DNA of 64,000 nt. Source: Patescibacteria group bacterium (GTDB lineage: Bacteria; Patescibacteriota; Minisyncoccia; Moranbacterales; UBA2206). Under the pieces are notes generated by a model. The model was not told the origin of the DNA. It searched no databases and saw nothing but the letters and a program-made list of their open reading frames with translations. The stretch spans positions 323,016 to 387,015 of the forward strand of contig JAKLFF010000001.1 in NCBI GenBank assembly GCA_022711335.1, given 5' to 3'. Below are positions 4,542 through 55,879 of this stretch, piece after piece. Every line of letters begins with the position of its first letter. Position 1 is the first letter of the stretch. Made by a program: the position numbers and the translations under genes.

Positions 4542-5597
4542 TTATTTCACCGCATAATTTTCTGCGGCAAACTCGTATTGCTCAATAAATATCTTTTTCA
4601 TCGGCACGATTGAATTTAGTTCGTAGAAAACCAGAACGGCTGATTTGTATTCTTCTTCGTCCACGCTGCGATACGACAATGGAGCGAGTGAATGAGAGAT
4701 TAGAAGAGCGTTAGTCATAAGCCTGGATGTTCTTTTATTCCCATCTTCAAACGGTTGGATATAACTGATGCCGAGAAGCGCTAAAAGAGCCTTGACATAA
4801 GGCGTGTCGTTTTTGGAAACTACTTTTGAAAGCGTTTCGATAGCTTCGGTTATTTGATAGATGTTATCCAACGGTTTATAAACTGATCCGGTAATTCCAA
4901 CGGCTCTTGATCTAAAGCCTGTGCTGACATTCAAATCTTTGATGACAATTAAATGCAGTTCTTCCAGATTTTTCCGAGTGATAGTCTGGAATTGGGAAGA
5001 ATGCGAACGGATATAATTAAAAGCGTCTTTATGATTCAGGATCATCTGAGTTTCATTCTTGCTATGTCCCGGAGCCTCCTTGTTTTCCAAAATTAGTTTT
5101 TCCGTATCAAGAAGCGTGTAGGTATTACCTTCAATTTTGGACGATTTCCAGGAAAGTTCAATTACCAAACGTTCCAGTTCTTTTTTCTGGATGGTAGAAG
5201 AAATGCCAACCGTTCTTTTTTTGTATATCCGGGTAGCTTTTTCCAATTTTCCCAACTCCTCTTCAGTAAAAATATCAGCGGGAAAATTTGACAGCAAATT
5301 GAAATTGTACTGGTTAAAACCATATCTCTTATCTGGTTCGACTGCCACATATTGTTTGGCATTAACATCCGCCAAAACTCGTCCAGCAATGCTTAACTCA
5401 TAGCTTGTTGACCGTCCCGAACCGGATACTTCCAAAAAGCCTTTTTCAGTTAGTTCCGACAAGGCTCTTTTGACTGTCACCAGAGAAACATCTTCTCCGG
5501 CACTTTTTAATTCTTCGTGCAGTTGAGAAGACTGCATTTTCCCTTTTTCAAGGAAAATCTCAATGACTTTTTGTTGTTTTGTGGTTATTTTTTGCAT
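4542..5597 (-). CDS. Fic/DOC-family protein with N-terminal winged-helix domain; catalytic motif degenerate (QPFEDGNKRTSR)
   Basis: Fic core HxFx(D/E)GNGRxxR is present as QPFEDGNKRTSR, with Gln in place of the catalytic His. The N-terminal ~70 aa are wHTH-like. Confidence 0.7.
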   Translation of the reverse strand: MQKITTKQQKVIEIFLEKGKMQSSQLHEELKSAGEDVSLVTVKRALSELTEKGFLEVSGSGRSTSYELSIAGRVLADVNAKQYVAVEPDKRYGFNQYNFNLLSNFPADIFTEEELGKLEKATRIYKKRTVGISSTIQKKELERLVIELSWKSSKIEGNTYTLLDTEKLILENKEAPGHSKNETQMILNHKDAFNYIRSHSSQFQTITRKNLEELHLIVIKDLNVSTGFRSRAVGITGSVYKPLDNIYQITEAIETLSKVVSKNDTPYVKALLALLGISYIQPFEDGNKRTSRLMTNALLISHSLAPLSYRSVDEEEYKSAVLVFYELNSIVPMKKIFIEQYEFAAENYAVK

Positions 5598-5918
5598 AAT
5601 CGTATCATTTAATTAACCTAATCATATCATAATGATACGATTATAGCAAGTAACCGGCAAATTAGTTGGGCTCTTAATGTGTGTGTATACACTCATTTCC
5701 GCACTTTTTCGTAGGCGTGGAATTTCTTTTTGTTCATTATTTTATTGCTTAATGCTAATGCAACAGCAATTTAGATTCGGTTGCGAAACAAAGCAAGTCC
5801 GAAAAGCCAGAGTTATCCACTTAGGCGGGGAACGGAGGCAATAACGCAAAAACTGCTATTTCTGGCGATTAAACGGAGCGGAGCGGTGGCTAATTTAAGA
5901 TAAACTATCGCTTCTATT

Positions 5919-6686
5919 TTATCCAAAAAAACGTAACAAGAAATTATAGAATTTACGTTCTTTTATAGAAATATGCTTATTCAGCATAATACTTTCGTCA
6001 TCGTTCCAACCTCCGTCAAACTCTAATACCCATCTTTTTCTTATAAAGTTAGTATTCACCCCGCTTAACATAAGTTCAAATTCATATTTGCCAGGCTCAA
6101 TGACATTAGGAATTTCACCTTTGCTGACTTTATTAGGCTGAACTGCAGTATCAAGAAGCAGGATTGTGTATTTACTATTTATTGGTCTAAAACTCCCAAA
6201 ATCACAGTGCCTAAAAAATCTCCTGGGTATGCTTCTTTTTTTTCCTTCAAAATGACTCCACTTCAAATTCATAGGAAGGAACGCTTTTTTGACCTTCTTC
6301 TCACCATTTTCATCAATAGTCCAAAAATTTGAGATGATAATCTCAGCATCATCAGCTGAGTTACCTTTAATATGAGAAACCCTTATCCTAATATAAACAC
6401 AATTTGATACAAACTCTCTTGTGGCAGAGTTAGTCAGTTCAATCTGATGACAATCGGGCGAAGTAGTGTTAATAAACATTGAAACTTTGGCTTTCCTGTT
6501 CTTATATCTATCATAGAAAAAGGTTGAAAGTGCCACTGCACCCAAAAAAATAGTACCTATAGCAGTCCAAGCGTCTGTATTGATAGTTTTTACATAAGAA
6601 TTATTCTGAAAGAAAGCAAAGACAACCCAGCCCATTTCAATGATAAGGACTAACGCAATAAGTTTAGTAATAAAATTTTTAATCAT
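5919..6686 (-). CDS. Hypothetical membrane-anchored protein (2 N-terminal TM helices, ~190 aa soluble domain)
   Basis: ORF only. No family recognised. Lies directly downstream of the 16S rRNA on the same strand. Confidence 0.35.
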   Translation of the reverse strand: MIKNFITKLIALVLIIEMGWVVFAFFQNNSYVKTINTDAWTAIGTIFLGAVALSTFFYDRYKNRKAKVSMFINTTSPDCHQIELTNSATREFVSNCVYIRIRVSHIKGNSADDAEIIISNFWTIDENGEKKVKKAFLPMNLKWSHFEGKKRSIPRRFFRHCDFGSFRPINSKYTILLLDTAVQPNKVSKGEIPNVIEPGKYEFELMLSGVNTNFIRKRWVLEFDGGWNDDESIMLNKHISIKERKFYNFLLRFFG

Positions 6687-7027
6687 ATGCCTACCAAAAA
6701 ACGGGGAATAAATCCCCGAATTTTGTATTTAGTAAATCACAAATTTTTGCGGTTCCCCGAACTAATGTTCAGGGCCGTTAACCTATCGTTAACGGAGTCC
6801 TTTAAGAGTCTATCGGTGTGTATACTTGCACACCTAGGGATTATATAGCTCCCATGGGCATTGCTGTTCCTTTGAATAAATCCAAAGGTCGACCAGCGGA
6901 TAGAATCTACATTCCACAACGCTAGGTTTGACCCTATGCGTCTTTGTGTGAAATGCTCTCAGATTCTACCAAATTCTCCCTAGAAAGGAGGTGATCCATC
7001 CACAGGTTCCCCTACGGATGCCTTGTT

Positions 7028-7865
7028 CATGTTTTCTCCAAACGTGTTTCCACGGGCATGGACTATATCTTCACCCCGATTAAATCGGGGGCCAACGTGT
7101 AGTCTCTACGGGGTCAAAGGTAGCTTGTAAACCATATTGGGATGCATATAAGGAAAAACTAATTCCTTAAATTTATTGATGTTACTAACTGGCACATAAA
7201 GCCTGCATCCTTTACTGTCCCAATTGAGATTAACTTGAAGATTAAAATTACGCTTCAAGCAATCAATCAGTGACCTATTTTCATCCCTCGAAAAACTGTG
7301 AGTGCTTATAGTAATGGTTTTCTTAGAAGTACTAAGACTGCCATCATCCATAAACCACACAGCCAAACTTATTGGATCAACGAAAATTTCTTTAATGTTT
7401 TTTGGAATAATTTTCTTCCCAACAGGATAGAATATCTCTCGATACTCTGTAAGTTGATAGTGAGAAATGGTTCTAAATCTGAACGACCGATGCTGCTGCA
7501 AATATTTCGGTTGAGTAAGAACCCAATCTTCAAATATTCCAGCAGTCCATAAGACATAGTCTTTATGTTCAGCTTTTTGTTCCACCTGCAATCTATAACT
7601 TTTTCCCGTTAAGGTAGAAATTAGAGAACCATCGCCTAAAATTTTTCCCACCAAAACTCCTTTTTGGATTTCAGTGAGATTTAGACTACTTCTAATATTC
7701 CTAACAATTTTCGAGTTCCAATTTTTTATACCTCGACTTCCCACGGTATTACCATAAGCTAATTATGTCTTAATTTTAACATAATTGTAGCTGTTAGGCT
7801 TCACCGTTACAGTTGGGTTTGTCGTGAGGATTGCTCCTCAAGGTCGCAACGATTAGTGTAATCAA
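7028..7865 (-). mobile_element. Intron in 16S rRNA (~E. coli position 1506) carrying a LAGLIDADG homing endonuclease gene
   Basis: Exon sequence CCTTGTT | ACGACTTCACCC is split by ~838 nt, and an ORF lies wholly inside the insert. Confidence 0.8.
7106..7744 (-). CDS. LAGLIDADG homing endonuclease (double-motif, single-chain type)
   Basis: Two LAGLIDADG motifs: ILGDGSL (N-terminal) and FMDDGSL (C-terminal). 212 aa. Sits entirely inside the 16S insertion. Confidence 0.85.
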   Translation of the reverse strand: MGSRGIKNWNSKIVRNIRSSLNLTEIQKGVLVGKILGDGSLISTLTGKSYRLQVEQKAEHKDYVLWTAGIFEDWVLTQPKYLQQHRSFRFRTISHYQLTEYREIFYPVGKKIIPKNIKEIFVDPISLAVWFMDDGSLSTSKKTITISTHSFSRDENRSLIDCLKRNFNLQVNLNWDSKGCRLYVPVSNINKFKELVFPYMHPNMVYKLPLTP

Positions 7866-7954
7866 ACGACTTCACCCTTATCATCGATCCCACCCTGGTC
7901 CCTGCTTTGAAACAGGGCCTTCCGGTGTTACCGACTCTCTTGGTGTGACGGGCG

Positions 7955-8405
7955 ATTATCTTTGAGAAACTTCAAATTGATGTTCCCATCGCGCCTGCGG
8001 ATTTCCCGCACGCGACGAGCTCTAATGCATTTTAATTTCAAAGTCACATTTAAAAAATGAAATATAATTTCTTATGCAATTGAGTAAGTCCTTCACCTTT
8101 AATAAAGTTACTACGACTTAGCTGACTTCTTATAAAGTCATAAGTTTCTTGGCTTTATAAGATCTCCCGGGGTTATATATTATTCCATTCCTGACATTCC
8201 AACGCATCGAGTCTAGGCATCTTCCCTAACCTCACCACCCAATCATAGGTCGATGCGATGCTTTTTATTGTTGGACTGCCGTTTGTTTCCAGGTCCTTCA
8301 CCGCATTGCTCGCGCAATGCGACTACCTTTCAACTACGCTCTCGTGACGAACGAGAGGGAGAGATTTTAACTCTCTTAAACAATACACTGCCCGGCGCTT
8401 TTATT
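7955..8405 (-). other. ORF-less ~450-nt insertion (putative intron) in the 16S 1390s region
   Basis: GGTGTGACGGGCG and GTGAGTACAAGATCCGAGAACGTATTCACCG, contiguous in all 16S genes, are separated here by ~450 nt of GC-moderate structured sequence. Confidence 0.5.
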
Positions 8406-8635
8406 GTGAGTACAAGATCCGAGAACGTATTCACCGTGACATGGCTGATTCACGATTACTAGTGATTCCGGCTTCATGAGGTCGAGTTGCAGACCTCAAT
8501 CCGAACTGAGACCAAGTTTTTGGGATTAGCTCCGCCTTGCGGCTTGGCAACCCTTTGTCTTGGCCATTGTAGCACGTGTGTCGCCCAGGGCGTCAAAGGG
8601 CCACGCTGATCTGACGTCATCCCCGCCTTCCTCCC

Positions 8636-8830
8636 AGAACTTTGCACGCGAAACGTGCAAAGTAAATCCGAAGCACGAAATCCTAAATCCAAAACAAATT
8701 CAAATAATAAAATTTAAATTTTCAAAACGTATTTGTTTTGAATTTTAAAAATTAGAATTTTGAAAATTGTTTGGGATTTCGATATTCGAATTTCGAATTT
8801 ACTTTGCGCTCTCGCGCAAAGTTCTGGGCA
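8636..8830 (-). repeat. ~190-nt AT-rich hairpin insertion in 16S (copy 1 of a duplicated element) closed by a GC-rich stem
   Basis: The insert is flanked by complementary arms CAGAACTTTGCACGCGAAACGTGCAAAGTAAAT / ATTTACTTTGCGCTCTCGCGCAAAGTTCTGG. Its ~110-nt core is ~85% identical to 10330-10445. Confidence 0.5.
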
Positions 8831-9051
8831 GTCTCGCGTGACATAGTAACACGCGACAGGGGTTGCGCTCGTTTCCTGACTTAACAGAACACCTTACGGC
8901 ACGAGCTGACGACGACCGTGCAACGCCTGCTTAGCACCCTCGAAGGCTTATCTGTTTCCAGATAATGCAGCTAAGTTTCAAGCCCTGGTAAGGTTCCTCG
9001 CTTATTGACGAATTAAACCACATGCTCCACCACTTGTGCGGATCCCCGTCT

Positions 9052-9083
<32 letters not shown>

Positions 9084-9709
9084 TCCCAGGCGGCAGACTT
9101 AACGCGTTAGCTACGACACCGGAAGGGTCGATTCTCCCGATACCTAGTCTGCATCGTTTAGGGCGTGGACTACTGGGGTATCTAATCCCATTCGCTACCC
9201 ACGCTTTCGCATCTCAGCGTCAGAAAAGTGCCAATCAAATGCCTTCGCCTTTGGTGTTCCATATGATATCAACGCATTTCACTGCTACACCATATGTTCC
9301 ATTGATCTCTCACTTTCTCAAGATATGCCGTTTCAAATGCAGTTTTCGAGTTGAGCTCGAAGATTTGACATCTGACTAACATACCCGCCTACATGCGCTT
9401 TACGCCCAATAAATCCGGATAACGCTTGAGGTCTCTGTATTACCGCTACTGCTGGCACAGAGTTAGTAACCTCTTATTCAATCGGTACCGTCAAATTGTG
9501 CCTCACTATTGCTTTGTAATTTTCAATTTACAATTATCAATTTTCAATAAATTTACAATTTATTAATTTCCAATTTTCAAATCGTCATATTGATAATTGA
9601 AAATTGAATCTTGATAATTTTTTGTAAATTGTAAATTGGTAAATGTAAATTGTTTTTTTAGGAATTGAATGGAGATTGCGAGACCGCGAGGTTCCGCAAT
9701 CCCGCAGTT

Positions 9710-9928
9710 TTAATCGGCATAGTCATCGCCCAATAATGCTCTCTTGTGAGCTTCTCTGGCTTGAGCTAAGGTTTCGAATTTTTTTCCCGAATAACATTCT
9801 TTCCATTTTGATGAAAAAGGCTCCTCAAGGCTTTCAATCTTTTTTGTTTCCGCATTATAGCGAAATTTGACAAAGGAACTGCGACTAAGTTGCATTTCTC
9901 CCAGCCCGAAATATTTTTTCTCTGTCAT
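9710..9928 (-). CDS. 72-aa ORF inside the 16S insertion (hypothetical; could be non-coding)
   Basis: ORF only. No homing-endonuclease motif (LAGLIDADG, GIY-YIG, HNH) seen. Confidence 0.2.
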   Translation of the reverse strand: MTEKKYFGLGEMQLSRSSFVKFRYNAETKKIESLEEPFSSKWKECYSGKKFETLAQAREAHKRALLGDDYAD

Positions 9929-9990
9929 ACATCATCCTTTCTTTGCCATTAGAATTGTTGTAGACAACCTCAATTCAATCCCTAATTGAC

Positions 9991-10046
9991 TTGTCATCCT
10001 GAAATCGTTTCAGGATCTAGATGCTGAAATAAATTCAGCATGACAA
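9991..10046. repeat. Small inverted-repeat element copy A (TTGTCAT ... TCTAG ... ATGACAA, two internal hairpins)
   Basis: TTGTCATCCTGAAATCGTTTCAGGATCTAGATGCTGAAATAAATTCAGCATGACAA. The 7-bp terminal inverted repeats and the TCTAG core are shared with 35234-35313. Confidence 0.5.
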
Positions 10047-10320
10047 AGCCACCAAACAATAGTGAGACACAATTTCTTCCCGATTAAAAGCGGTTTACAA
10101 CCCAAGGGCCTTCATCCCGCACGCGGCGTCGCTCCATCAGGCTTTCGCCCATTGTGGAATATTCTCGACTGCAGCCACCCGTAGGTGTTTGGACAGTGTC
10201 TCAGTTCCAATGTTGGGGGTCACGCTCTCACGTCCCCTACCCGTCATAGCCTTGGTGAGCCTTTACCTCACCAACAAGCTGATAGGACACAGGCCGCTCT
10301 CTAAGCGCTGTATACAGCGC

Positions 10321-10452
10321 AAAAATTCGAAATTTGAATATCGAAATCCAAAACAAATTCAAATACTTAAATTCAAATGTCCAAAACATAGTTGTTTTGA
10401 ATTTTGAAAATTAGAATTTTGATATTGTTTAGAATTTCGAATTTCGCGCTTC
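10321..10452 (-). repeat. ~130-nt AT-rich hairpin insertion in the 16S 5' domain (copy 2 of the element at 8636-8830)
   Basis: The core CGAAATCCAAAACAAATTCAAATA...GTTGTTTTGAATTTTGAAAATTAGAATTTTGA...TTCGAATTTCG is shared with 8680-8800. Confidence 0.5.
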
Positions 10453-10603
10453 GGATTTCTGTGCTATATACGGCTTTACTTCGTAAAGCTTATCATGTAT
10501 TATTTCTCCTTTCGAAGAATTATTCATGACTTAGAGGTACGTTCCTATGCATTACTAACCCGTTTGCCATGGGCCTAAACCCATGCGACTTGCATGCCTT
10601 ATC

Positions 10604-10643
<40 letters not shown>

Positions 10644-11198
10644 AATGAAAATCGAAATTTCAAATCGCGAAGCGATGCAGAAATTTCGCTAGTTTCATTA
10701 GACTCCGTGATTCCGCGGAGCGGAATTTTACGGGGTCAAAAAACCAGATATTAAAAGAAAATAAATTCTTTGAGTTCCCGACGCAAAGGTCGGGATAAAT
10801 TGAATAGACTCTAATTGTCCGATCCCGCTTAGCGGGACCAGACGAGGACTAATCGCAAAAAATTGTGATTTACCCCGTGATCGCGTGCGCGATTTTACGG
10901 GGTTTCGTCCAAATCTTTCCAATGACTTAAAAAGATTTGAACTATTTAATTTTAAAAGTTCTTGCTTTTTGTGTCGAACCGTTTGACAAGCTCACAGCGA
11001 ACAAAAAACACATCCTTATGCGCAATTTTATTACACGCAAGGATGTATTTTATATCACCCGAATTTTAAAGTAATTTTGAGCCTTTAATTACTGCCGTTT
11101 TGGTCTTAAATAATTATATGCAACTCGTGATATCTATATTAGCAAATACACAAATGCTGTCAACCCCTAATTTTATCATCTTAAAAAATACGTTAAAT

Positions 11199-12452
11199 TT
11201 AAACTTCAAGCTCATTGCTCCTACAAATTTTAGCGTATTTTAAGGCGCTTGGGCGAATCTTTCTTTCTAGCGTTTTATAATCAACTTCGACTAATCCAAA
11301 CCGCGGCCAGAATCCCTTGTCCCATTCAAAATTATCCAGTAGCGACCAATAAAAATATCCGCGTACATCAGCTCCATCTTGAATTGCTCTTTGCATTTCC
11401 CAAAGATGGTGAAAAATAAAACTTTGGCGTTTGGAATCATCCGCATCCGCCAAGCCGTTTTCGGTGATATATATCGGCAAATTATGCTCTTTGAGTTTGT
11501 TGATTATGCGATAAATCCCATGGGGGAAAATTTCCCAATTCATATCCGTTACCGGCAAATGTTCTGTCCTCACTTTCTTAGGAAACCGGAAACGGTTATG
11601 AAAATAATATTGCACCGTCAAAAAATCATTATATCCTTCGGTCAAATTAAGCATTCTCCGATTTGTCAGATATTTTCCGATCCTGACCATCAGCTCATCC
11701 AAAAACCATTTTCTTCTGTAAGGCTCAAAAGAATGGAGAATATTGGCAAAGCCGACTTGCGCATCTGGACAATTTTTATGGATAATTTCATAAGCCCTGA
11801 TATGAGAGCGCGCAAAGATTTTATAAAGCCTCCAGGCTTTTAAAATATTTTTTTTCTGCGGAGGCCATACTCCCGTCAAATAAGAACTGGCAATAACAGA
11901 TGTCGGCTCGTTCAAAGTTATCCAAAATTTTACTTCTTTTCCCAATTTTTTTGCCACATATTCGGAGTATTTGGAAAAATATTCAGGAAATTTCCGGCTT
12001 TCGCACCCGCCTTTTTTTTCCAGCCACAAAGGAATTGTCCAGTGCCAAAGTGTTACAAACGGTTCCATCCCCCGGTTTTTTATAGCTTGGATTACTTTTC
12101 GGTAATGTTCGACTTCCCGCTCATCGAATTTTCCTTCTTCCGGCTCAATTCTCGACCACTCAACGGAAAAACGATGGGCGTTATGGCCCAGTTCTTTCGC
12201 AATATCAAGGTCATTTTCGTATCGATTATAGTGATCGCAAGCCCGGCCGGAAACATAATTTTCCGAATTAAACATTTCCGGAAATTTGTCTTGCTGCCAT
12301 TTTTCCCATTTGCTTCCTGCTTCTTTGGCAAGCCTTTCGGCGTTGGCTTTCTCCCATTCGCTCCAATCGTTCCGGTTTCCACCCTCAACCTGATGCGCAG
12401 AAGTCGCCGCGCCCCATAAAAAATTATCTGGGAATTTTAGCTTTTCCGACAT
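11199..12452 (-). CDS. Glycoside hydrolase family 1 beta-glucosidase
   Basis: GH1 catalytic motifs TLNEP (acid/base Glu) and ITENG (nucleophile Glu), plus N-terminal WGAATSAHQVEG. Confidence 0.85.
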   Translation of the reverse strand: MSEKLKFPDNFLWGAATSAHQVEGGNRNDWSEWEKANAERLAKEAGSKWEKWQQDKFPEMFNSENYVSGRACDHYNRYENDLDIAKELGHNAHRFSVEWSRIEPEEGKFDEREVEHYRKVIQAIKNRGMEPFVTLWHWTIPLWLEKKGGCESRKFPEYFSKYSEYVAKKLGKEVKFWITLNEPTSVIASSYLTGVWPPQKKNILKAWRLYKIFARSHIRAYEIIHKNCPDAQVGFANILHSFEPYRRKWFLDELMVRIGKYLTNRRMLNLTEGYNDFLTVQYYFHNRFRFPKKVRTEHLPVTDMNWEIFPHGIYRIINKLKEHNLPIYITENGLADADDSKRQSFIFHHLWEMQRAIQDGADVRGYFYWSLLDNFEWDKGFWPRFGLVEVDYKTLERKIRPSALKYAKICRSNELEV

Positions 12453-25986: not shown

Positions 25987-26134
25987 AAATAAAAATTTTC
26001 AATTTTTAATTTTCAATTTTTAAACAATTTTTAATTTCTTAATTTTGAAATTATTGAAAGTTTAAAAAATTAGTCATTAAAACATTGGAAATTGTTTAGA
26101 AATTAGAAATTGGAAATTTAATTACCTAATTAAA

Positions 26135-26875
26135 TTACGCGTTTTTCATGCTCAATTTTATATCCTCAAACAGGCTTTTTTGTTCGACGTTTACAATCCT
26201 CTGTTTCACCATCTCCAGCACCGCCAAAAAGGAAACAATCACGTCGATTTTTTCTTTCGCGCCGGAAACCAGTTCGGAAAAGGAAGTTTCGATTCTTTTC
26301 CGAAGAGTTGATTCCAAATCATTTATTTTCTCCTCCAGAGTGACGACTTCCGAGACGATTTCTTCCTGCAATTTTTCCATAAGCGGTATTTCCGAAAGGA
26401 TTTTCAAAAAAGTTTTCTTGAGGTCGTATATATTGACATTCTCCGGCGGATAAAATACCGCTTCTATGCCGACAAAACCGCTTCTTGGAAAAGCCTGCTT
26501 TTTTAATTTTGACATTTTTCCCAATTTTTCCGAAGCCTCTTTGAATTTTCTATATTGTTCGAGCTGCCGCTTGAGATCGACTATTTCTTCTTCCTCCTCA
26601 TCAGTAAACTTGAGTGCCGGAAGAATTGACCGGGATTTAATCAGAATAAGCTTTGAAGCTACGGACAAAAACTCGGCCAGATGGCCAAGGTCTATCTTGT
26701 CGTTGTCCTTTATGAAATTAAGATACTCATCGGCCACTTTCGCCAGGCTAAGCTCGTTAATATCGAGCCTTTCCTTCTCAATAAGCTCCAAAAGAAGTTC
26801 CATCGGGCCTTCAAATTTTTCGAGTTTTACTTGATACACTATCGCAAAATTTTCAATTTTCAATTTTTCAGCCAA
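26135..26875 (-). CDS. scpA: Segregation and condensation protein A (kleisin)
   Basis: N-terminal FEGPMELLLELIEKERLDI, typical of ScpA. 246 aa. Confidence 0.8.
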   Translation of the reverse strand: MAEKLKIENFAIVYQVKLEKFEGPMELLLELIEKERLDINELSLAKVADEYLNFIKDNDKIDLGHLAEFLSVASKLILIKSRSILPALKFTDEEEEEIVDLKRQLEQYRKFKEASEKLGKMSKLKKQAFPRSGFVGIEAVFYPPENVNIYDLKKTFLKILSEIPLMEKLQEEIVSEVVTLEEKINDLESTLRKRIETSFSELVSGAKEKIDVIVSFLAVLEMVKQRIVNVEQKSLFEDIKLSMKNA

Positions 26876-27009
26876 AGACTAATCCGCCTATGGCAGACAA
26901 TTTTCAAACAATTCTCAATTTAATAATTTTTAAATTTATTAATTGATTTGAAAATTTAGTCATTGAAACATTGAAAATTGTTTAGAAATTAGAAATTGAA
27001 AATTAGAAA

Positions 27010-27510
27010 TTATTTTTTGGCCTTGCTGAAGCTTCCCTTCACCGGATTTTCAATTTTGACATACTGGCTCGTATTAATTAGAAGCGATTCCGTGTATTCT
27101 CCCGATCCGACATATATTTTTTTATTTTTCAAAAGCAGGCCGTCAGCATAAACGTCCAGTTTCAAAATCTCCTGAAACGGCGGAGTCGCTCCCACTTTTC
27201 CAGGCAGATTCTTTTTCATCCAAAGCTCTTTCGCAAAATCTATTTTTTTGAAAAGCTTTTCTTTGTTCTTCTTTCTCCGAGCGTTTATTGCCTTTAGAAG
27301 CTTCTGCTTGTCCAAATTTCTGTTCGACGGAACCATAGCCAAAAGATAATCATTGTCCGCTTTCATAACCAGCGCTTTCGCCACTTGCTGGGGCTTCACT
27401 TTTTCCGTCTGAGCCGTATCCCAGGCAGTAAAAGTGGTTCTATGCCCGATTATTTGGTATTTATATTTTTTCAAGTCGAGATAATTGGAAATTTTTTTAG
27501 GTATAGCCAT
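27010..27510 (-). CDS. YbaK/ProX-like aminoacyl-tRNA deacylase domain protein
   Basis: Length and conserved pattern (…KALVMK…, …GxxGATPPF…, …VYADGLL…) resemble the YbaK/ProX editing domain. Confidence 0.5.
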   Translation of the reverse strand: MAIPKKISNYLDLKKYKYQIIGHRTTFTAWDTAQTEKVKPQQVAKALVMKADNDYLLAMVPSNRNLDKQKLLKAINARRKKNKEKLFKKIDFAKELWMKKNLPGKVGATPPFQEILKLDVYADGLLLKNKKIYVGSGEYTESLLINTSQYVKIENPVKGSFSKAKK

Positions 27511-33854: not shown

Positions 33855-35144
33855 TTATTTTCTCCCGATTCCGTGATATTTTATTCCCAGCTTTTTGATT
33901 TTTTCAGCAGGAAGAGCGTTCATGCCGTCCACAATCGCCACGATCTTATTCTTCTTAAACTCTTTTGGATCAATTTCCATAAATTCCTTGTGATTGGTGA
34001 CTAAAATTATCGCCTGCGATTTCTGGAGGAATGTTTTCAGATTTTTCACGTCGGAAAGCTTCAAAATATACGGATCATAGCGGACGATTTTCGCCCCTTT
34101 TTTCTTAAGTTCCGAAATTATTTTTATCGCCGGAGATTCGCGAAGATCGTCCACATTGGCTTTATAGGAAAGACCCATGACTCCGACGGCCGTTCCCTTC
34201 ATGGCAAGTCCGGCGCCATTCAAAAGATCCTGCATCAGTTCGACAGTATAGTTCGGCATGGAATTGTTGATTTCCCGCGCCACGCGCAAAAACTTATGGT
34301 CAAATCCCGATTCTTTGGCTCTTTCAATGAGATAATACGGATCAACCGGAATGCAATGCCCGCCCACTCCCCGCCCGGGATAGTGCGCCATAAAAGCGAA
34401 CGGCTTTGTCGCTGCCCCGTCAATCACGTTTTTTACGTTAATATTCATTTGGTCAAAACTTTTCGCCAGTTCGTTCACAAAAGCGATGTTGATGTCGCGG
34501 AAAGAATTTTCCACCACTTTGCAGGCTTCCGCTTCTTTTATCGAAGCCATTAATTTTATAGGAGCATCGATGATCGATTCATAAAAATCTTTGGCAATTT
34601 CCAAACCCTTTTTGGAGCTCGCCCCAAGGACTCTCGGGATATTGGTCACATTCCATTTCGGATCGCCCGGGTTGATGCGCTCCGGGCAATGGGCGATATA
34701 AAAGTCTTTTCCTTCCTTCAGTCCGGCTTTTTGGAATATGGGCATGATCACTTCTTCGCAAATTCCAGGATTAATGGTTGATTCAATGACGATAAGCTGG
34801 CCCGGCTTCCTGTTTTTGATGATAATTTCAGCAGCGGAAATCAGTGGGTCGAGAATAGGAAAAAATTTTTCATCCACCGGCGTGGGAACGCAGACGATGG
34901 CTATATCCGATTTTTTTATCACTCCCGCGTCAGATGTGGCTGTGATTTTTCCAAGAAGCTCTTTCCTTTCAGAAATAAAATTTTCTTTGAACGGGCTTTT
35001 TCCTTTTTTTATCAGATTTATCTTTTTTTCATCCCGATCAAATCCAAAAACTTCATATCCCCTTTCCGCCGCGCGGATGGCCAGAGGCAGTCCGACATAG
35101 CCAAGGCCGATAATGGTGATGATTTTGTTCTTTTTTTCCGGCAT
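33855..35144 (-). CDS. Nucleotide-sugar dehydrogenase (UDP-glucose / UDP-ManNAc dehydrogenase family)
   Basis: N-terminal Rossmann IIGLGYVGLPLA, catalytic Cys region (…GGHCIPVDP…), three-domain length of 429 aa. Confidence 0.8.
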   Translation of the reverse strand: MPEKKNKIITIIGLGYVGLPLAIRAAERGYEVFGFDRDEKKINLIKKGKSPFKENFISERKELLGKITATSDAGVIKKSDIAIVCVPTPVDEKFFPILDPLISAAEIIIKNRKPGQLIVIESTINPGICEEVIMPIFQKAGLKEGKDFYIAHCPERINPGDPKWNVTNIPRVLGASSKKGLEIAKDFYESIIDAPIKLMASIKEAEACKVVENSFRDINIAFVNELAKSFDQMNINVKNVIDGAATKPFAFMAHYPGRGVGGHCIPVDPYYLIERAKESGFDHKFLRVAREINNSMPNYTVELMQDLLNGAGLAMKGTAVGVMGLSYKANVDDLRESPAIKIISELKKKGAKIVRYDPYILKLSDVKNLKTFLQKSQAIILVTNHKEFMEIDPKEFKKNKIVAIVDGMNALPAEKIKKLGIKYHGIGRK

Positions 35145-35233: not shown

Positions 35234-35313
35234 TTGTCATTCCCGCGAAAGCGGGAATCTAGTCTGATATTTTGGCTTATTCACTGGATTCCCAATCAAG
35301 TTGGGAATGACAA
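35234..35313. repeat. Small inverted-repeat element copy B (80 bp)
   Basis: TTGTCATTCCCGCGAAAGCGGGAATCTAG…GGATTCCCAATCAAGTTGGGAATGACAA. Same termini as copy A, with two hairpins. Confidence 0.5.
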
Positions 35314-35450: not shown

Positions 35451-36059
35451 ATGCCAAACTATTACGATTCCATCTACAAAGAAAACACAAACTTTTGCAA
35501 TCAAAAACCAAATGAATTACTGGCCAAATTTTTGAAAAAATTGCCGAAAGGCAAGAAAGTTTTAGATTTGGGCTGCGGGCAAGGCCGCGATTCTTTTTAT
35601 CTAGCTCAAAAAAATCTCCACGTTACGGCAGTTGATAATTCCAAAGTAGCTATCGTGCAAATAAAAGAAGCCATAAAAGAAAAAAATGCAAAGAATATTT
35701 GGCCGGTTTGCAAAGATATCGCAAAGTTTAAAATTAAACCTGGGATTTTCGGCCTTATCAACTGCCAAAATGCCCTTCAATTTCTCCCTAAAAAAAGTGC
35801 TCTGAAAACCATTGAAAACATCAAGAAAAATATCTCCCCGGGTGGAATTATTATTCTTACTTCTTTTATCGCCCACACCCAACCTTTGGATAAAAATAAA
35901 TCCCGCTTTAAGCCGGGAGAAATGAAGAAATTATTTTCTGATTCTGATTTTAAAATTTATTATTATTTTGAAGGAATTTTAAATGACAAAGGCCATCTCG
36001 GAAATCCTAAACCGCATAAGCATGGAATTGTAAACATTGTGGCAAAAAAAGTGTTTTAA
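35451..36059 (+). CDS. Class I SAM-dependent methyltransferase (TehB-like)
   Basis: Motif I VLDLGCGQGRD, then motif II/III spacing of Rossmann-fold MTases. Confidence 0.7.
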   Translation: MPNYYDSIYKENTNFCNQKPNELLAKFLKKLPKGKKVLDLGCGQGRDSFYLAQKNLHVTAVDNSKVAIVQIKEAIKEKNAKNIWPVCKDIAKFKIKPGIFGLINCQNALQFLPKKSALKTIENIKKNISPGGIIILTSFIAHTQPLDKNKSRFKPGEMKKLFSDSDFKIYYYFEGILNDKGHLGNPKPHKHGIVNIVAKKVF

Positions 36060-36083: not shown

Positions 36084-36102
36084 TTTGTCAAAATTTGACA
36101 AA
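36084..36102. promoter_or_regulatory. Perfect 9-1-9 palindrome TTTGTCAAA-A-TTTGACAAA (candidate operator; same TTGTCA/TGACAA half-sites as the inverted-repeat element termini)
   Basis: Exact inverted repeat read directly from the sequence, 300 nt upstream of the MFS gene. Confidence 0.35.
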
Positions 36103-39468: not shown

Positions 39469-40524
39469 CTATTTTAGAACATAACTTGTCGCCCGTCCTT
39501 TGCCTACTGATTTGATAATTCCGAGCTTTTTGAGTTTTTGAAGCTCAGCTTGAGCAGTCCTCTGAGGACATTTTAAAATGTCCATTACATCATTAACCCT
39601 TATCCTCCCTAATTGATCAATAAAACCCAGAACCTGTTGCTGCTTGGGAGTTAGATAGACCTGGCTGTTGATGGTTTTGTCTATTTTCCGGAGAGCCAGC
39701 ATTGTCACCTGATTTTTGACATTCATAATTTCATCCCTGAATCCTTCCACAAAATATTCCAGCCATCTGGTTATTTCTGTTTCACGTTCTTCATAATTCC
39801 TTCCTATATTCACGGCTTTATAATAATTTGGCAGATCTTTGTTATAATAATCCTCAAGAGCAAACAACTGGCGAAAGTCATATCCTCGCTTGTATAGGAT
39901 CAAAGTCGCCAAAGCTCTGGCTGTCCGGCCGTTGCCGTCGTTAAAAGGGTGAATAGCTGCTATTTCCAGATGAGCTACTCCGGCCACAATTACCGGGTTG
40001 ATTTCTTCTTTTTCGCTTTGGTTTATCCAAGAAATCAAATCAGCGCAAAGATAAGGCACATTAACCGCTTTCGGACCAGCATAGACTATCTCATCTGAAA
40101 ATCCTAGTCTTCTTTTTACGACATAAACCGGACCAGGCCTGAAATGCCCGGACTGTTCTTTCGGCAAAGTTTTATCAGTAACCAGAGAGTGAATTTTAAG
40201 AAGTGTTTTGTCAGTGATGGGTTTTCCGCTTTTGACAAATTTTCCGATGTACTCCAATGCCCTCAGATAATTCTGCACTTCATAAATATCTCTGGTTGGA
40301 GCATCGATTTTTTTATTGGCATATAAAGCTTCTACCTGGCGAATATCTAAAACATTGCCCTCGATAGCTGTCGAACTATGAGACATCCTGATTATTGCCT
40401 GGCGTTTAAGTTTGAGTTCCTGCTTGGGCAAAAGTCTGGCCTTGGCAATTATGCCTTTGGCTTCCGCAATTTCTGCCAGATTCTTGAGTATTTTATTGGT
40501 GATTGTATATTGAGGCTTTAGCAT
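39469..40524 (-). CDS. Fic-family protein (canonical motif) with C-terminal winged-helix domain
   Basis: HPFNDGNGRTARALATL is the complete Fic motif HPFx(D/E)GNGRxxR. The likely true start is the ATG at 40524 (MLKPQYTITNKIL…). The track start at 40581 is a TTG. A -10-like TATAAT lies 7 nt upstream of the ATG with no SD, so the transcript may be leaderless. Confidence 0.8.
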   Translation of the reverse strand: MLKPQYTITNKILKNLAEIAEAKGIIAKARLLPKQELKLKRQAIIRMSHSSTAIEGNVLDIRQVEALYANKKIDAPTRDIYEVQNYLRALEYIGKFVKSGKPITDKTLLKIHSLVTDKTLPKEQSGHFRPGPVYVVKRRLGFSDEIVYAGPKAVNVPYLCADLISWINQSEKEEINPVIVAGVAHLEIAAIHPFNDGNGRTARALATLILYKRGYDFRQLFALEDYYNKDLPNYYKAVNIGRNYEERETEITRWLEYFVEGFRDEIMNVKNQVTMLALRKIDKTINSQVYLTPKQQQVLGFIDQLGRIRVNDVMDILKCPQRTAQAELQKLKKLGIIKSVGKGRATSYVLK

Positions 40525-40547
40525 ATTGCTATTATACACCCAATTGG

Positions 40548-40582
40548 GAAATCGCGCAAGAATCGCGCAAGAATCGCGCAAA
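40548..40582. repeat. Tandem direct repeat 3 x 11 bp (AATCGCGCAAG) upstream of the Fic gene
   Basis: AAATCGCGCAAG AATCGCGCAAG AATCGCGCAAAG read directly. Positioned in the -35/upstream region of the putative leaderless promoter. Confidence 0.6.
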
Positions 40583-40735
40583 GATTTATCGATTTTTTAT
40601 AGTCCCGCTTGGCACCTTTTTATATCATTTTAATAGAGTATATGGGGTATCTGCCAAATAATACAACAACTAAGGAAATTTGCAGCAAAAAAAGAGCCTT
40701 CGCCCTTTTTGCATTAGTATATTTTTCATTAGCAA

Positions 40736-41365
40736 TCACGTCGTCTGCCTTCTTAAAAATTCGTTGATCTTTTCTGAAATTTTTTTTTGGATTTCTTCCC
40801 ATCCGGCATTTTCAATCATCTTAGGCATCGGTTCATCTTTGGCAGCTTCAAAATATGCAAGGCTTTTAAGAATATGCAGCTTGTTATAACGGATATCTTT
40901 GAATTTTTTTTCAAAAAATCCTAGAAGTTCTTCCAAGGAATATTTTTTAAGCAAAAAAAATAAATCAATAAAATCCTTTTTGCTTCCCCTGGATGAGATA
41001 GCATCAATTTTCATAGCGGCAATATCCCGTTCATCGGCTAAATTTATTCCTTCAAAAGCAACCAATGGAAAAAGTCGGCCATAAGGATAATGCAAAAAAC
41101 TTACTTTTACATTATCAATCGCACCATGGACAGTGTTTTCTTCTTCACTGTTCAATTCGAAACTGCCTATTTTTGACAATTCGTTCTTTATTTTTTCATT
41201 GGCAAATTCTTTTTCCGAAAACCAATCCAAATCGATTGATTCTCTATGTCCTAACTGAATAGCCAAGGCGGTTCCGCCAGCCAGATAAAAATTGGAAACA
41301 AAAGCGCTTTTTCCTATCTTTTCGAGAACGCGCTTTGTTTCAAGATTGATTGATTCGCTAAACAT
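40736..41365 (-). CDS. AbiEii-like nucleotidyltransferase (DUF1814-type; putative type IV TA / abortive-infection toxin)
   Basis: N-terminal FYLAGGTALAIQLGHRESIDLDWF (GGTAL…R.S.DLD) is the AbiEii/DUF1814 NTase signature. 209 aa. Confidence 0.5.
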   Translation of the reverse strand: MFSESINLETKRVLEKIGKSAFVSNFYLAGGTALAIQLGHRESIDLDWFSEKEFANEKIKNELSKIGSFELNSEEENTVHGAIDNVKVSFLHYPYGRLFPLVAFEGINLADERDIAAMKIDAISSRGSKKDFIDLFFLLKKYSLEELLGFFEKKFKDIRYNKLHILKSLAYFEAAKDEPMPKMIENAGWEEIQKKISEKINEFLRRQTT

Positions 41366-41649
41366 TTGTTTATTTTCAAGTTAAAAAATTGGCACCAAAA
41401 ATACAAAGACTTCCCGGTAATCGACCGGCTTTTGAGGATCGCCGCCTTGAGTCTATCTTCTCCATAAAATTTCAAAGCCCAACGAAAGTCTTTTTCGTCT
41501 CCAAAATCAAGTATTCTTTCTATAACAAATTGTTCATTTTCTTGGGGATCAACACCTTCAACATCCCAAAAAAGAGAGCGTTTTTTAAGCGTATCCATAA
41601 GGCCATTATAGCATAAAACGGGCCGAATTGAAAGCCCGCTTATTTTCAA
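41314..41649 (-). CDS. Small protein upstream of, and overlapping, the NTase; putative cognate antitoxin or partner
   Basis: 111 aa (or ~94 from the internal M). Overlaps the NTase start by 52 nt. Family not recognised. Confidence 0.3.
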   Translation of the reverse strand: MKISGLSIRPVLCYNGLMDTLKKRSLFWDVEGVDPQENEQFVIERILDFGDEKDFRWALKFYGEDRLKAAILKSRSITGKSLYFWCQFFNLKINKCLANQSILKQSAFSKR

Positions 41650-46616: not shown

Positions 46617-46618
46617 TG

Positions 46619-47425
46619 TCAAGTACCCATTTTCTTAGACACGAACTCTGAGATTAAAAAATGATTAGCGAATTGAATCGGCGACATTCTGAGAGCGGTA
46701 TGAATCCGCTCATTGTTATATCTGTAAATGGTTTGATAAATTTCATAAACCAGCTCGCCTAAAGTATCAAATCTGTTTGTGTCTCCCAAATCAACTTTAA
46801 ACTGCGAATAGAATGATTCCTGGTATCCGTTTTCCCATGGAGAACCTTTTTCGCTCATGGAAAGACGGATGCCAAGACTTCTTGCTAAGCTTATATAATC
46901 TTTGGATAAGTATTCCGATCCTTGATCGCTGTGTATTATTTCGGCCGGAGGATGTTTATGAATTGCCGATAGCAGGGCGCTGATAGTCAATTGGGACGAA
47001 TGATTTTTAAGAACTGAAAACCCGACAATTTCCCGATTGAATAGATCCATAACCGTAGCCAAATAAATCCAGCTTCCCTTAAACGGCAGATAAGTAAAAT
47101 CGGAAACCCAAATTTGATTTAGCTTTTTCGGGAATTCGGTTAAAAGTAAATTGGTGAAAGCGGTTAGCGGGTTCTTCTTTGATTTCCGCCATTTCTTGCC
47201 TCTTCTTCTGTATGGCTTGATGCCATAAATATTCATTACCCGAAGGATTCTTTTCTTGTTGGCTCTCAATTCCAAAGCTATTCTTTTGTGTCCGTAACTT
47301 TTCTTTTTGCGGAGGACTTTTTCAATTTCAATTTTCAGCTTCCAATCCTTATCTTTTTGCTTGTGCTTGTAATACAGAAGCGAACGGGATACTCCTAAGG
47401 CTTCGGCTAATTCTTTCTTGTTCAT
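46619..47425 (-). CDS. IS3-family transposase OrfB (DDE/rve integrase domain)
   Basis: DDE triad context (…WVSDFTYL…, …HSDQGSEY…, …SPWENGYQESF…). Confidence 0.85.
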   Translation of the reverse strand: MNKKELAEALGVSRSLLYYKHKQKDKDWKLKIEIEKVLRKKKSYGHKRIALELRANKKRILRVMNIYGIKPYRRRGKKWRKSKKNPLTAFTNLLLTEFPKKLNQIWVSDFTYLPFKGSWIYLATVMDLFNREIVGFSVLKNHSSQLTISALLSAIHKHPPAEIIHSDQGSEYLSKDYISLARSLGIRLSMSEKGSPWENGYQESFYSQFKVDLGDTNRFDTLGELVYEIYQTIYRYNNERIHTALRMSPIQFANHFLISEFVSKKMGT

Positions 47426-47442
47426 TTTGCTCGAAGAAAGAA

Positions 47443-47706
47443 CTAAATCTTTTTTTGGGCTTGGGATAGCTTGATGGTCAGCTCTCCAACCAGGGCCAAA
47501 AGCTCCTGGTTTTGTTTTTTCAATTTGTTGAATTCCTGGATGGTAGGAGTGCTTACTTTATTGGTCAGCCAGCGATAAATGGTATGCGTGGAAATGCCGT
47601 GTTCTTCAGAAGCCTTTACTACGGAAATTCCTTCTTCTTTGATTCTTTTTAAAACTTGTTCTTTGACATCGCTACTGATGCGATAATTGTGTTTTGTATT
47701 GCCCAT
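47443..47706 (-). CDS. IS3-family transposase OrfA (HTH)
   Basis: N-terminal HTH (…GISVVKASEEHGISTHTIYRW…) and C-terminal leucine-zipper-like region, as in IS3 OrfA. Confidence 0.8.
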   Translation of the reverse strand: MGNTKHNYRISSDVKEQVLKRIKEEGISVVKASEEHGISTHTIYRWLTNKVSTPTIQEFNKLKKQNQELLALVGELTIKLSQAQKKI

Positions 47707-47758
47707 ATACTTTGGATTATATCTGAGAATCCGTGTCTAGTATATGGGGTACCTGCCA

Positions 47759-54913: not shown

Positions 54914-55315
54914 ATGAATACTCTTCGTACTATCTTCAAAAAAATATCCGCGTTTGAACCATCTATTGGCTTAGAAAAGCGAATTATTGAAAAAATTGCT
55001 TTGCAAAATAAATTGGCCTTGAGACGAAAATTGGCCTTTATTTATACCGGTTTTATAGCATCATCTGGAGTTTTTATCTGGGCTATTTTCACTCTTGGAA
55101 AAGTTATTTATCAGTCAGCTTTTTGGGACTTGGCCGCTCTTTTCTTCTCGGATACCGGATTAATAATTCAAAATTGGAGTAGTTTCGCCTATTCGCTTAT
55201 GGAAACTCTGCCAATATTTGGAATTGTTGCGATATTAATTCCTATTTTTGCTTTATTTATGTTAATAAGCGCGTATTTCAAGGCGATCAATCATAATCAT
55301 TATAAATTTATATAA
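54914..55315 (+). CDS. Membrane protein downstream of the ECF sigma gene (putative anti-sigma factor)
   Basis: 133 aa with 3 TM helices. Position and size are consistent with an anti-sigma role. No zinc-finger motif. Confidence 0.35.
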   Translation: MNTLRTIFKKISAFEPSIGLEKRIIEKIALQNKLALRRKLAFIYTGFIASSGVFIWAIFTLGKVIYQSAFWDLAALFFSDTGLIIQNWSSFAYSLMETLPIFGIVAILIPIFALFMLISAYFKAINHNHYKFI

Positions 55316-55326
55316 TATACACCAGC

Positions 55327-55357
55327 TTGTCATCCCCGACTTGATCAGGAATGACAA
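55327..55357. repeat. Small inverted-repeat element copy C (31-bp mini variant)
   Basis: TTGTCATCCCCGACTTGATCAGGAATGACAA. Same TTGTCAT/ATGACAA termini. Confidence 0.45.
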
Positions 55358-55390: not shown

Positions 55391-55879
55391 ATGAACGAAC
55401 TATTAAAATCTAAAAAATTCAAAATGGCTTCTGGAATTGTCGGGGCCTTGATCCTGGCCTTTATTATTTTCGGCGCCGGAGTGTCAGTCGGAATCCATAA
55501 AGCCCGCTTTTCGTACAAATTCGGCGAAAACTATGAAAGAAATTTTATGGGGCCAAGAGACAAAGGACCAATGGGAAAACCAATGGGATTTTTCCGCGAT
55601 ATGGAAGGCCGGGATTTTCGAAACGGACATGGAATTGCTGGCAGCATAGTGTCAATCTCTGATAACACTATCATTATTAAAGATTCGGAAAACAAGGAAA
55701 CTTCCATTGCAGTGAATGACAAAACTGCCATCAAAGACCGACGGGATGATATAAAAATAACCGATCTCAAACGGGATGAAAAAATCGTAGTTCTCGGAAA
55801 GCCAGGAGACAATGGGGTTATTAATGCTGACCTGATCCGAGTTTTTGACAATAATCCGAATAATAATCCACAAAATTAA
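55391..55879 (+). CDS. Membrane-anchored beta-rich protein (DUF5666-like), paralog of 50949..51422
   Basis: N-terminal TM, then …GSIVSISDNTIIIKDSENKETSIAVNDKTAI…LKRDEKIVVLGKPGDNGVINADLIRVFD. Confidence 0.4.
   Translation: MNELLKSKKFKMASGIVGALILAFIIFGAGVSVGIHKARFSYKFGENYERNFMGPRDKGPMGKPMGFFRDMEGRDFRNGHGIAGSIVSISDNTIIIKDSENKETSIAVNDKTAIKDRRDDIKITDLKRDEKIVVLGKPGDNGVINADLIRVFDNNPNNNPQN

Follow-up and report, generated by a model that had tools for sequence, protein, structure and literature searches.

About half of the dRS3 copies of Neisseria are part of a longer, oriented motif, the NTS (CGTCATTCCCGCGMAVGCGGGAATCYRG), and NTS-like repeats, the "Ssn-related motifs" (SRM), are present in many phyla (Chenal et al., Nat Commun 2025, PMC11893778). 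These repeats flank ssnA, a 94-aa single-domain GIY-YIG gene (cd10448), in an insertion sequence–like NTS-ssnA-NTS arrangement (PMC11893778). As reported there, SsnA binds the folded motif only as ssDNA and cuts a few nucleotides upstream, and Ssn action is limited to the strand that reads GTC-hairpin-C, with neither dsDNA nor RNA being acted on; the restriction of binding and cutting to ssDNA was shown with the enzymes of Neisseria and Wolbachia (PMC11893778). In N. meningitidis, binding depends most on the C directly behind the palindrome, and cleavage is governed by the GTC in front of it (PMC11893778). By analogy with the REP/RAYT and IS200/IS605 systems, Chenal et al. suggest Ssn-dependent movement of the repeats (PMC11893778). 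The partner enzyme of this hairpin class was identified only in 2025.

The three elements described here (A, B, and C; Table 1) are delimited by TTGTCAT and ATGACAA and lie in a stretch of 64,000 nucleotides from a Patescibacteria genome (the window). They probably belong to the oriented hairpin repeats of the NTS/SRM class, which includes the oriented dRS3 form of Neisseria, and represent nuclease-less forms of it. A and B, as inverted doublets, correspond to the ends of a hairpin-ssn-hairpin unit that has no gene between them, and C is a degenerate single hairpin. Like the described repeats, the arms of the window combine GTC, a palindrome starting with AT, and C(Y)(R)G in one frame; they form 20–21-nt hairpins in inverted pairs, and their stem classes flank Ssn genes elsewhere, including in a Patescibacteria relative. 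Unlike them, they are few locally and have no ssn gene between or near them (84 kb searched). In addition, A lies within an insertion of the 16S rRNA gene, and the elements belong to a CPR bacterium, a group that goes unmentioned in the main text of PMC11893778. The class itself is known; what is new here is its presence in a CPR genome and the stem classes outside the published search pattern. This reading removes an apparent oddity, in that the elements would not be a new family of miniature inverted-repeat elements (MITEs) but local members of a cross-phylum class of hairpin repeats.

Table 1. Elements A, B, and C and associated features of the window.
Feature	Position	Strand	Length	Description
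16S rRNA gene	8354-10649	minus		multiply interrupted
Insertion holding A	~9499-10065	minus	567 nt	Rfam model positions ~457-465, helix 17 region (cmscan alignment)
72-aa ORF	9710-9928			within the 567-nt 16S insertion
A	9991-10046		56 bp	compact inverted doublet, stems of the CTGAA…TTCAG class; within the 567-nt 16S rRNA insertion
A, first arm	9993-10020	plus		shares the central palindromic CTAG with the second arm
A, second arm	10017-10044	minus		shares the central palindromic CTAG with the first arm
UDP-glucose dehydrogenase gene	33855-35144	minus		divergent intergenic setting of B, one side
B	35234-35313		80 bp	inverted doublet of two SRM/NTS-type arms
B, left arm	35235-35262	plus		TGTCATTCCCGCGAAAGCGGGAATCTAG; strict dRS3 (ATTCCC-N8-GGGAAT)
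B, spacer	35263-35283		21 nt	between the two arms of B
B, right arm	35284-35313	minus		TTGTCATTCCCAACTTGATTGGGAATCCAG; CTTGAT-type loop; N9 between ATTCCC and GGGAAT
Methyltransferase gene	35451-36059	plus		divergent intergenic setting of B, other side
IS3 inverted repeats	46617-46654 / 47721-47758		38 nt	TGTCAAGTACCC…
C	55327-55357		31 bp	single imperfect 21-nt hairpin, CTTGAT-type loop

The sequences and coordinates of the three copies, first put forward in a reading of the window made from the DNA alone (the sequence-only reading), proved exact. Three TTGTCAT…ATGACAA pairs with a gap of 10–80 nt occur in the window, compared to a mean of 0.023 in 1000 dinucleotide-preserving shuffles of the window, none of which reached three. 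With the gap restricted to 10–40 nt, 0.01 pairs are expected. The remaining 12 TTGTCAT sites of the window are without a hairpin partner, and the majority of them lie inside listed ORFs. A palindrome at 36084-36102, to which the same half-sites had been ascribed, has only TTGTCA in common with the elements and was rejected as a family member on account of its lack of the GTC-hairpin-C frame.

The layout of A is TT-GTC-[ATCCTGAAATCGTTTCAGGAT]-CTAG-[ATGCTGAAATAAATTCAGCAT]-GAC-AA, with two 21-nt hairpins (in square brackets). B follows the order TT-GTC-[ATTCCCGCGAAAGCGGGAAT]-CTAG-(21-nt spacer)-CTGG-[ATTCCCAATCAAGTTGGGAAT]-GAC-AA, with hairpins of 20 nt on the left and 21 nt on the right. Read from its own outer end, each of the four arms of A and B obeys the scheme ttGTC-AT(stem-loop-stem)AT-C(T/C)AG, the right arm of B having the same frame as the left, and all four have both critical positions, GTC before and C after the palindrome. 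A generic arm search, defined as GTC, a hairpin of at least 7 bp, and C, identified five sites in the window, versus 0.74 in shuffles; the four arms of the two doublets are among them.

At 27 of its 28 positions, the NTS consensus CGTCATTCCCGCGMAVGCGGGAATCYRG agrees with the left arm of B (TGTCATTCCCGCGAAAGCGGGAATCTAG). This arm alone in the window fits the published SRM search pattern (0.10 expected), and it alone fits the NTS consensus once the first base is left off; it is also the only place where the dRS3 form ATTCCC-N8-GGGAAT is found exactly, A and C having other stems. Both arms of A, the right arm of B, and C fall outside the published SRM pattern, and their membership in the family was therefore tested independently. 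Their putative assignment draws on the common frame and on the Ssn-flanking examples described below. Neisseria dRS3 repeats and NIMEs are comparable to B in that the left arm is a strict dRS3 and hairpin arms bracket a short variable segment. In contrast to the Neisseria repeats, N9 separates the half-sites in the right arm of B, the stems of A and C are of other kinds, the phylum is unrelated, and the window shows neither long arrays nor clusters near surface-protein genes.

The hairpin-rich interiors noted in the sequence-only reading were borne out by folding as ssDNA. The folding energy is -15.3 kcal/mol (z -5.4) for A and -17.5 kcal/mol (z -4.3) for B; each forms its two hairpins, and no shuffle of either folds as well. 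For C, which has the layout TT-GTC-[ATCCCCGACTTGATCAGGAAT]-GAC-AA and thus a GTC terminus on both strands, the minus strand folds at -8.7 (z -4.35) and the plus strand at -5.6 (z -2.9); the three stem mismatches turn into G·T pairs on the minus strand. The hairpin of C is akin to the right arm of B (CCCCGACTTGATCAGG versus TCCCAACTTGATTGGGA). With G rather than C after the palindrome and three stem mismatches, C may be nonfunctional.

No direct repeats flank the elements (GAC/AGC at A, TAA/AGC at B, and AGC/TTA at C), a result that bears on the MITE interpretation of the sequence-only reading. As MITEs, the elements would be mobilized in trans, via matching inverted repeats, by an IS with a DDE transposase, such as the IS3-family element of the window. 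The elements do resemble MITEs such as Correia elements in being small, intergenic, and noncoding and in having terminal inverted repeats, and the IS3-family element at 46617-47758, the only transposase of the window, would be at hand. Unlike in MITEs, neither target-site duplications nor a parent DDE IS accompany the elements, and their arms are self-folding hairpins that are found across phyla and shared with Ssn-flanking arms. The partial resemblance to the IS3 ends (TGTCAAG…) did not survive comparison: the 38-nt inverted repeats (TGTCAAGTACCCATTTTC…) are unrelated to the element termini, with only TGTCA in common, and the IS3 was ruled out as a mobilizer on this ground. Since A, B, and C lack target-site duplications and no IS with matching ends lies in the window or in the ~20 kb around it, the classical MITE reading fails, and mobilization of this kind is extremely unlikely.

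The connection to Ssn was assessed in 80 metagenomic Ssn loci retrieved with an alignment of Ssn proteins. An outward-pointing arm (GTC plus hairpin) lies at most 250 nt from the gene in 64 of the 80 loci, compared to 4.45 with shuffled flanks, and arms are found on both sides of the gene in 40, compared to 0.25. The published SRM pattern detects 46 of the 80 loci, against 64 for the generic GTC-hairpin search, and misses the arms that directly flank the Ssn genes in two contigs (L319 and L364). Among the 228 arms from these loci, C follows the palindrome in 86% and the palindrome starts with AT in 79%, which indicates the same frame as in the arms of the window.

Elsewhere, each of the window's three stem classes occurs beside Ssn genes. 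The CAACTTGATTG class flanks the Ssn gene in L364 (GTCATCCCCAACTTGATTGGGGATccag), where it is paired with a GCGAAAGC arm as in B, and forms related to the class of the right arm of B flank Ssn in L303, L330, L351, and L368. The CTGAA…TTCAG class, to which the stems of A belong, is present on both sides of the Ssn gene in L319, the one contig that provides the direct Ssn link of this class; the same contig also carries, 2 kb away, an Ssn-less inverted doublet of that class. The remaining class of the three, GCGnAnGC, flanks Ssn genes in many loci. The stems that flank Ssn genes hence include two classes missed by the published pattern, CTGAA…TTCAG and the CTTGAT-loop class, both of which are very abundant in public data.

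The hairpin-ssn-hairpin unit was also found in L145, L015, L041, and L050. The first of these, a canonical unit, is from a related Patescibacteria genome (UBA2772), in which a 99-aa GIY-YIG gene (PF01541) is located between inverted GTCATTCCCGAGCAGTCGGGAAT arms (5532-5916), indicating that the hairpin-ssn system exists in this lineage. Both NTS/SRM-type repeats and the canonical unit thus occur in Patescibacteria. In another locus (L084), a hairpin, a truncated ssn, and a second hairpin follow in a row; this arrangement would be a decay intermediate on the path from the hairpin-ssn-hairpin unit to the doublet.

REPs, whose hairpins have a GTAG/CTAC tetranucleotide at their foot, and the BIMEs and REPINs built from them offer a second parallel. 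They too are extragenic inverted hairpin doublets, probably recognized as ssDNA and free of target duplications, and in both systems the repeats enclose the small nuclease-type gene that goes with them. A, B, and C could accordingly be read as elements of a RAYT system, in which an IS200/IS605-like Y1 transposase mobilizes hairpin pairs as ssDNA; two inverted hairpins with a short spacer have the architecture of a REPIN, and elements of the IS200/IS605 type predict the lack of target-site duplications. The conserved flanks GTC…C(T/C)AG are, however, those of the NTS rather than GTAG/CTAC, and the gene found between such arms elsewhere encodes a GIY-YIG nuclease and not an HUH/Y1 transposase. 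No Y1 transposase or Y1_Tnp domain was detected among the scanned window ORFs or in the precomputed Pfam lists, and a RAYT origin is highly improbable.

Repeats of the same make are widespread in public sequences. In IMG/VR, the pattern TTGTCATTCCC-N8/9-GGGAATC was found at at least 120 loci, on contigs of 31–71% GC, and the stem class of A (GTCATSCTGAA-N3-7-TTCAGSATC) also at at least 120 loci; by a rough estimate, chance would yield few matches to each pattern. Many of the listed matches are inverted doublets, one of which (L212) is nearly the same as A, and the CTTGAT-loop class represented by the right arm of B and by C was also found in external contigs. A stem-independent scan of IMG/VR for TTGTCAT-N15-20-ATCTAGAT-N15-20-ATGACAA returned only one unrelated phage locus, in eight contigs, and a literature search by sequence string gave unrelated primer matches only. 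The suggestion of a REP-like family of hairpin inverted repeats is supported, and the external search found very many further copies outside this genome.

This distribution also bears on a role in RNA or transcription, be it as terminator, attenuator, or mRNA stabilizer, as a processing structure of the 16S insertion in the case of A, or as operator palindromes in dsDNA. The hairpins are strong, and the setting of each element would suit such a role: A is transcribed within the pre-16S RNA, B lies in a divergent promoter region, and C stands between two co-directional genes, 12 nt past a 133-aa gene (54914-55315) and 34 nt ahead of a DUF5666-like gene (55391-55879). A local regulator would not be expected to recur as the same sequences in genomes of 31–71% GC and in all contexts, including phage contigs. 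No arm is followed by a T-run, and a terminator scan found no intrinsic terminator at B or C. Between copies, the stems vary and the nonpalindromic flanks are conserved, which is the reverse of what characterizes an operator. An allele of the 16S insertion in a closely related strain (L380, described below) is without A, and A is consequently not needed for the insertion. The proposal of a structured RNA finds no counterpart in Rfam, where no match overlapping A, B, or C was obtained at the gathering threshold or at E <= 1, and SsnA of N. meningitidis is reported not to bind the RNA form of its motif (PMC11893778). Taken together, a role in RNA or transcription is improbable. The companion proposal of a protein-binding site came closer, as the elements would belong to a class that Ssn GIY-YIG nucleases recognize on ssDNA (PMC11893778).

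Both motif patterns are abundant on contigs classed as viral, phage contigs among them, and the dRS3 repeats of Neisseria are known phage integration sites. The elements might instead be places where site-specific mobile elements integrate, or what such elements left behind; IS110/IS1111-family elements and filamentous phages, which in Neisseria enter dRS3 repeats, are examples. The spread of the repeats would then be unrelated to Ssn. Neither an IS110-type nor a phage integrase gene adjoins A, B, or C, though, and integration would account neither for the origin of the repeats nor for their tight association with Ssn, making this explanation very unlikely. Use as an integration target is possible as a secondary use and is compatible with membership in the NTS/SRM class.

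A cognate nuclease gene was sought by tblastn, with a 124-sequence Ssn profile on six frames, and with Pfam on small, unassigned ORFs. No Ssn or GIY-YIG gene was found in the 64-kb window or in ~20 kb of flank taken from contigs of this organism (L131, L140), and a Y1 transposase or an IS110-type gene is likewise absent there. As candidates for the host's own Ssn, the widely sampled proteins P0047 and P0056 were considered; both belong to other organisms and were found in other samples. The ~20-kb extensions contain no further copies of the elements, and the local density, three loci (five to six arms) in ~84 kb, is far below the hundreds per genome of SRM-rich species.

A simple model for the NTS/SRM class would suggest that each arm folds when the DNA is single-stranded, as in replication, DNA uptake, or transfer. 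A cognate Ssn, hypothetical here, would bind the palindrome and the C that follows, and would cleave each strand once, at a position outside the doublet and a few nucleotides 5' of GTC. Doublets would be hairpin-ssn-hairpin units that have lost the gene, the organism presumably having, or once having had, a cognate Ssn, and C, which is without C after the palindrome, would be a decayed or nonfunctional site. We hypothesize that the elements are mobile, in which case Ssn-dependent mobilization or recombination may have spread them. Such a mode of action would be reminiscent of IS200/IS605 elements, in which subterminal hairpins are recognized on one strand, the cut falls a few nucleotides outside, and no target duplication results. 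In contrast to the doublets, the ends of IS200/IS605 are not inverted copies, and their enzyme forms a covalent tyrosine intermediate, whereas Ssn has been shown only to cut, not to join. Patescibacteria are thought to depend on DNA uptake, and cleavage of incoming single strands by such a nuclease could therefore be of importance to them.

The organism is present in many public assemblies, including GCA_035453105.1. The window, which has a GC content of 39%, is identical to part of the ENA metagenome contig ERZ27257480 k141_651268. Strain contigs from these data allowed each element to be compared. As previously noted, A is located inside a 16S insertion; it is not flush with the exon junction but lies ~19 nt inside the insertion edge, beside the basal stem of the insertion. 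The ORFs of the insertion have no Pfam match. A is identical in 10 contigs (L131-L133, L136, L378, L379, L381-L384) and differs in one, L380 (JGI 3300028625), the flanks of which are ~0.5% different from the window. The interior of the L380 insertion is not homologous to that of the window and contains a 132-aa ORF in place of the 72-aa ORF. A is missing from it, and another compact doublet of the NTS type, TTGTCATTCCCGCGGAAGCGGGAATCCAGACTGGATTCCCGATCAAGTCGGGGATGACAA, lies near the opposite end of the insertion. The two alleles have in common the basal stem of the insertion and one 24-nt block. Hence, the window and L380 present a presence/absence polymorphism of the doublet with no clean empty site.

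The 16S helix beside the insertion also differs between the window and L380, with compensating changes, so that the insertions look like diverged alleles exchanged as a block rather than like the outcome of a recent insertion or excision. The idea that the homology breaks within the insertion are fresh recombination junctions cut by Ssn was rejected, since the adjoining helix differs as well and its changes compensate one another. Doublets inside the 16S insertion that differ between near-identical strains are nonetheless a natural place to seek movement or recombination, and this polymorphism is one point worth following. A possible, if rather doubtful, extension of the model is that nuclease-less doublets are non-autonomous elements, moved or recombined in trans by Ssn acting on ssDNA, and that they enter and remodel the 16S insertions of CPR bacteria. 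If true, this would amount to a type of bacterial transposon built on a GIY-YIG enzyme, and it would explain the presence of different doublets at opposite ends of one 16S insertion in strains ~0.5% apart.

No clean empty site was found among the strain contigs for A, B, or C; strain polymorphism is confined to the 16S copy, and B and C are fixed in the sampled strains. C is identical in 10 strain contigs, which are all those covering the site, and B is identical in every strain contig that covers it. The closest relatives of the UDP-glucose dehydrogenase beside B have 62–78% identity and come from metagenome-assembled genomes of Candidatus Moraniibacteriota and other Patescibacteria. L148 retains some of the gene order around B, which is otherwise not conserved in relatives. 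Together with the multiply interrupted 16S gene, these relationships make a Moranbacteria-like CPR bacterium the most probable source of the window. Assemblies tend to break at repeats, and two Logan contigs start exactly inside the right terminus of B.

The 16S rRNA gene in the window carries at least three insertions, and comparison with a near-identical strain (contig L380; JGI 3300028625, Ga0302251_1000382) suggests that the longest of them has been swapped as a block. When positions 6404-6994 of that contig were set against 9516-10049 of the window, the flanks of the insertion differed by about 0.5%, and its interior was non-homologous. The L380 insertion carries a 132-aa ORF, which, like the 72-aa ORF of the window allele, had no match in Pfam. 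Exchange of the insertion in its entirety is suggested because compensating changes between the two strains are found in the adjoining 16S helix. Matches to plant miRNA precursors (Rfam) within the gene were rejected as spurious, their source being the AT-rich hairpin.

The rRNA/LAGLIDADG region (6700-11200) varies among strains. The homing-endonuclease ORF lies directly 3' of the 16S gene and is overlapped by a weak group I intron match scoring below the gathering threshold. The window holds no 23S rRNA. In two other strain contigs, L130 and L134, Fic-domain genes and a PRiA4_ORF3 gene replace this locus beside the 255-aa gene; these contigs come from strains in which the 310-aa protein is identical to that of the window.

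Features of the window, with small genes bracketed by hairpin arms in other contigs
Feature	Position	Strand	Remarks
16S rRNA gene	8354-10649	minus	2296 nt vs 1533-position model
16S insertion, 162 nt	about 10300-10460	minus-strand gene
16S insertion, 567 nt	about 9499-10065	minus-strand gene
16S insertion, long AT-rich hairpin	about 8633-8829	minus-strand gene
72-aa ORF	9710-9928	minus	inside 567-nt insertion
LAGLIDADG_2 homing-endonuclease ORF	7106-7744	minus	E 3.8e-41
Group I intron match	7040-7247	minus	E 0.029
AT-rich repeats	9518-9620, 25994-26121, 26848-27011		AATTGAAAATT / AATTTTCAATT
Perfect palindrome	36084-36102		TTTGTCAAAATTTGACAAA; between methyltransferase and MFS transporter genes
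Accessory cluster	39469-41649		Fic, AbiEii toxin, DUF6922 genes
IS3-family insertion sequence	46617-47758		HTH_Tnp_1 ORF, rve integrase-core ORF
NTS-arm-bracketed non-Ssn small genes (IMG/VR)	L016 11722-12038; L020 359-681; L117 210-532

AT-rich repeats based on AATTGAAAATT / AATTTTCAATT occur in two intergenic regions as well as in the 16S insertion, and constitute a second repeat family of the window, unrelated to the hairpin family. The palindrome TTTGTCAAAATTTGACAAA, which the sequence-only reading had described as having the same half-sites as the TTGTCAT/ATGACAA elements, falls outside the hairpin family as well; it may be an operator, and a similar pair is present at 3636-3710. The IS3-family element is bounded by imperfect inverted repeats of 38 nt. 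The accessory cluster, flanked by histidine-kinase and methyltransferase genes, probably represents a module of the toxin-antitoxin or abortive-infection type.

Beyond the window, inverted NTS-type hairpin arms bracket small genes other than that of the GIY-YIG nuclease Ssn in contigs classed as viral, and the arms may therefore delimit cassettes besides ssn. Around some metagenomic Ssn loci, arms belonging to several stem classes form a dense mosaic (22 arms within 6.3 kb in L364, 20 within 4.4 kb in L335), similar to the BIME/NIME arrays of other bacteria.
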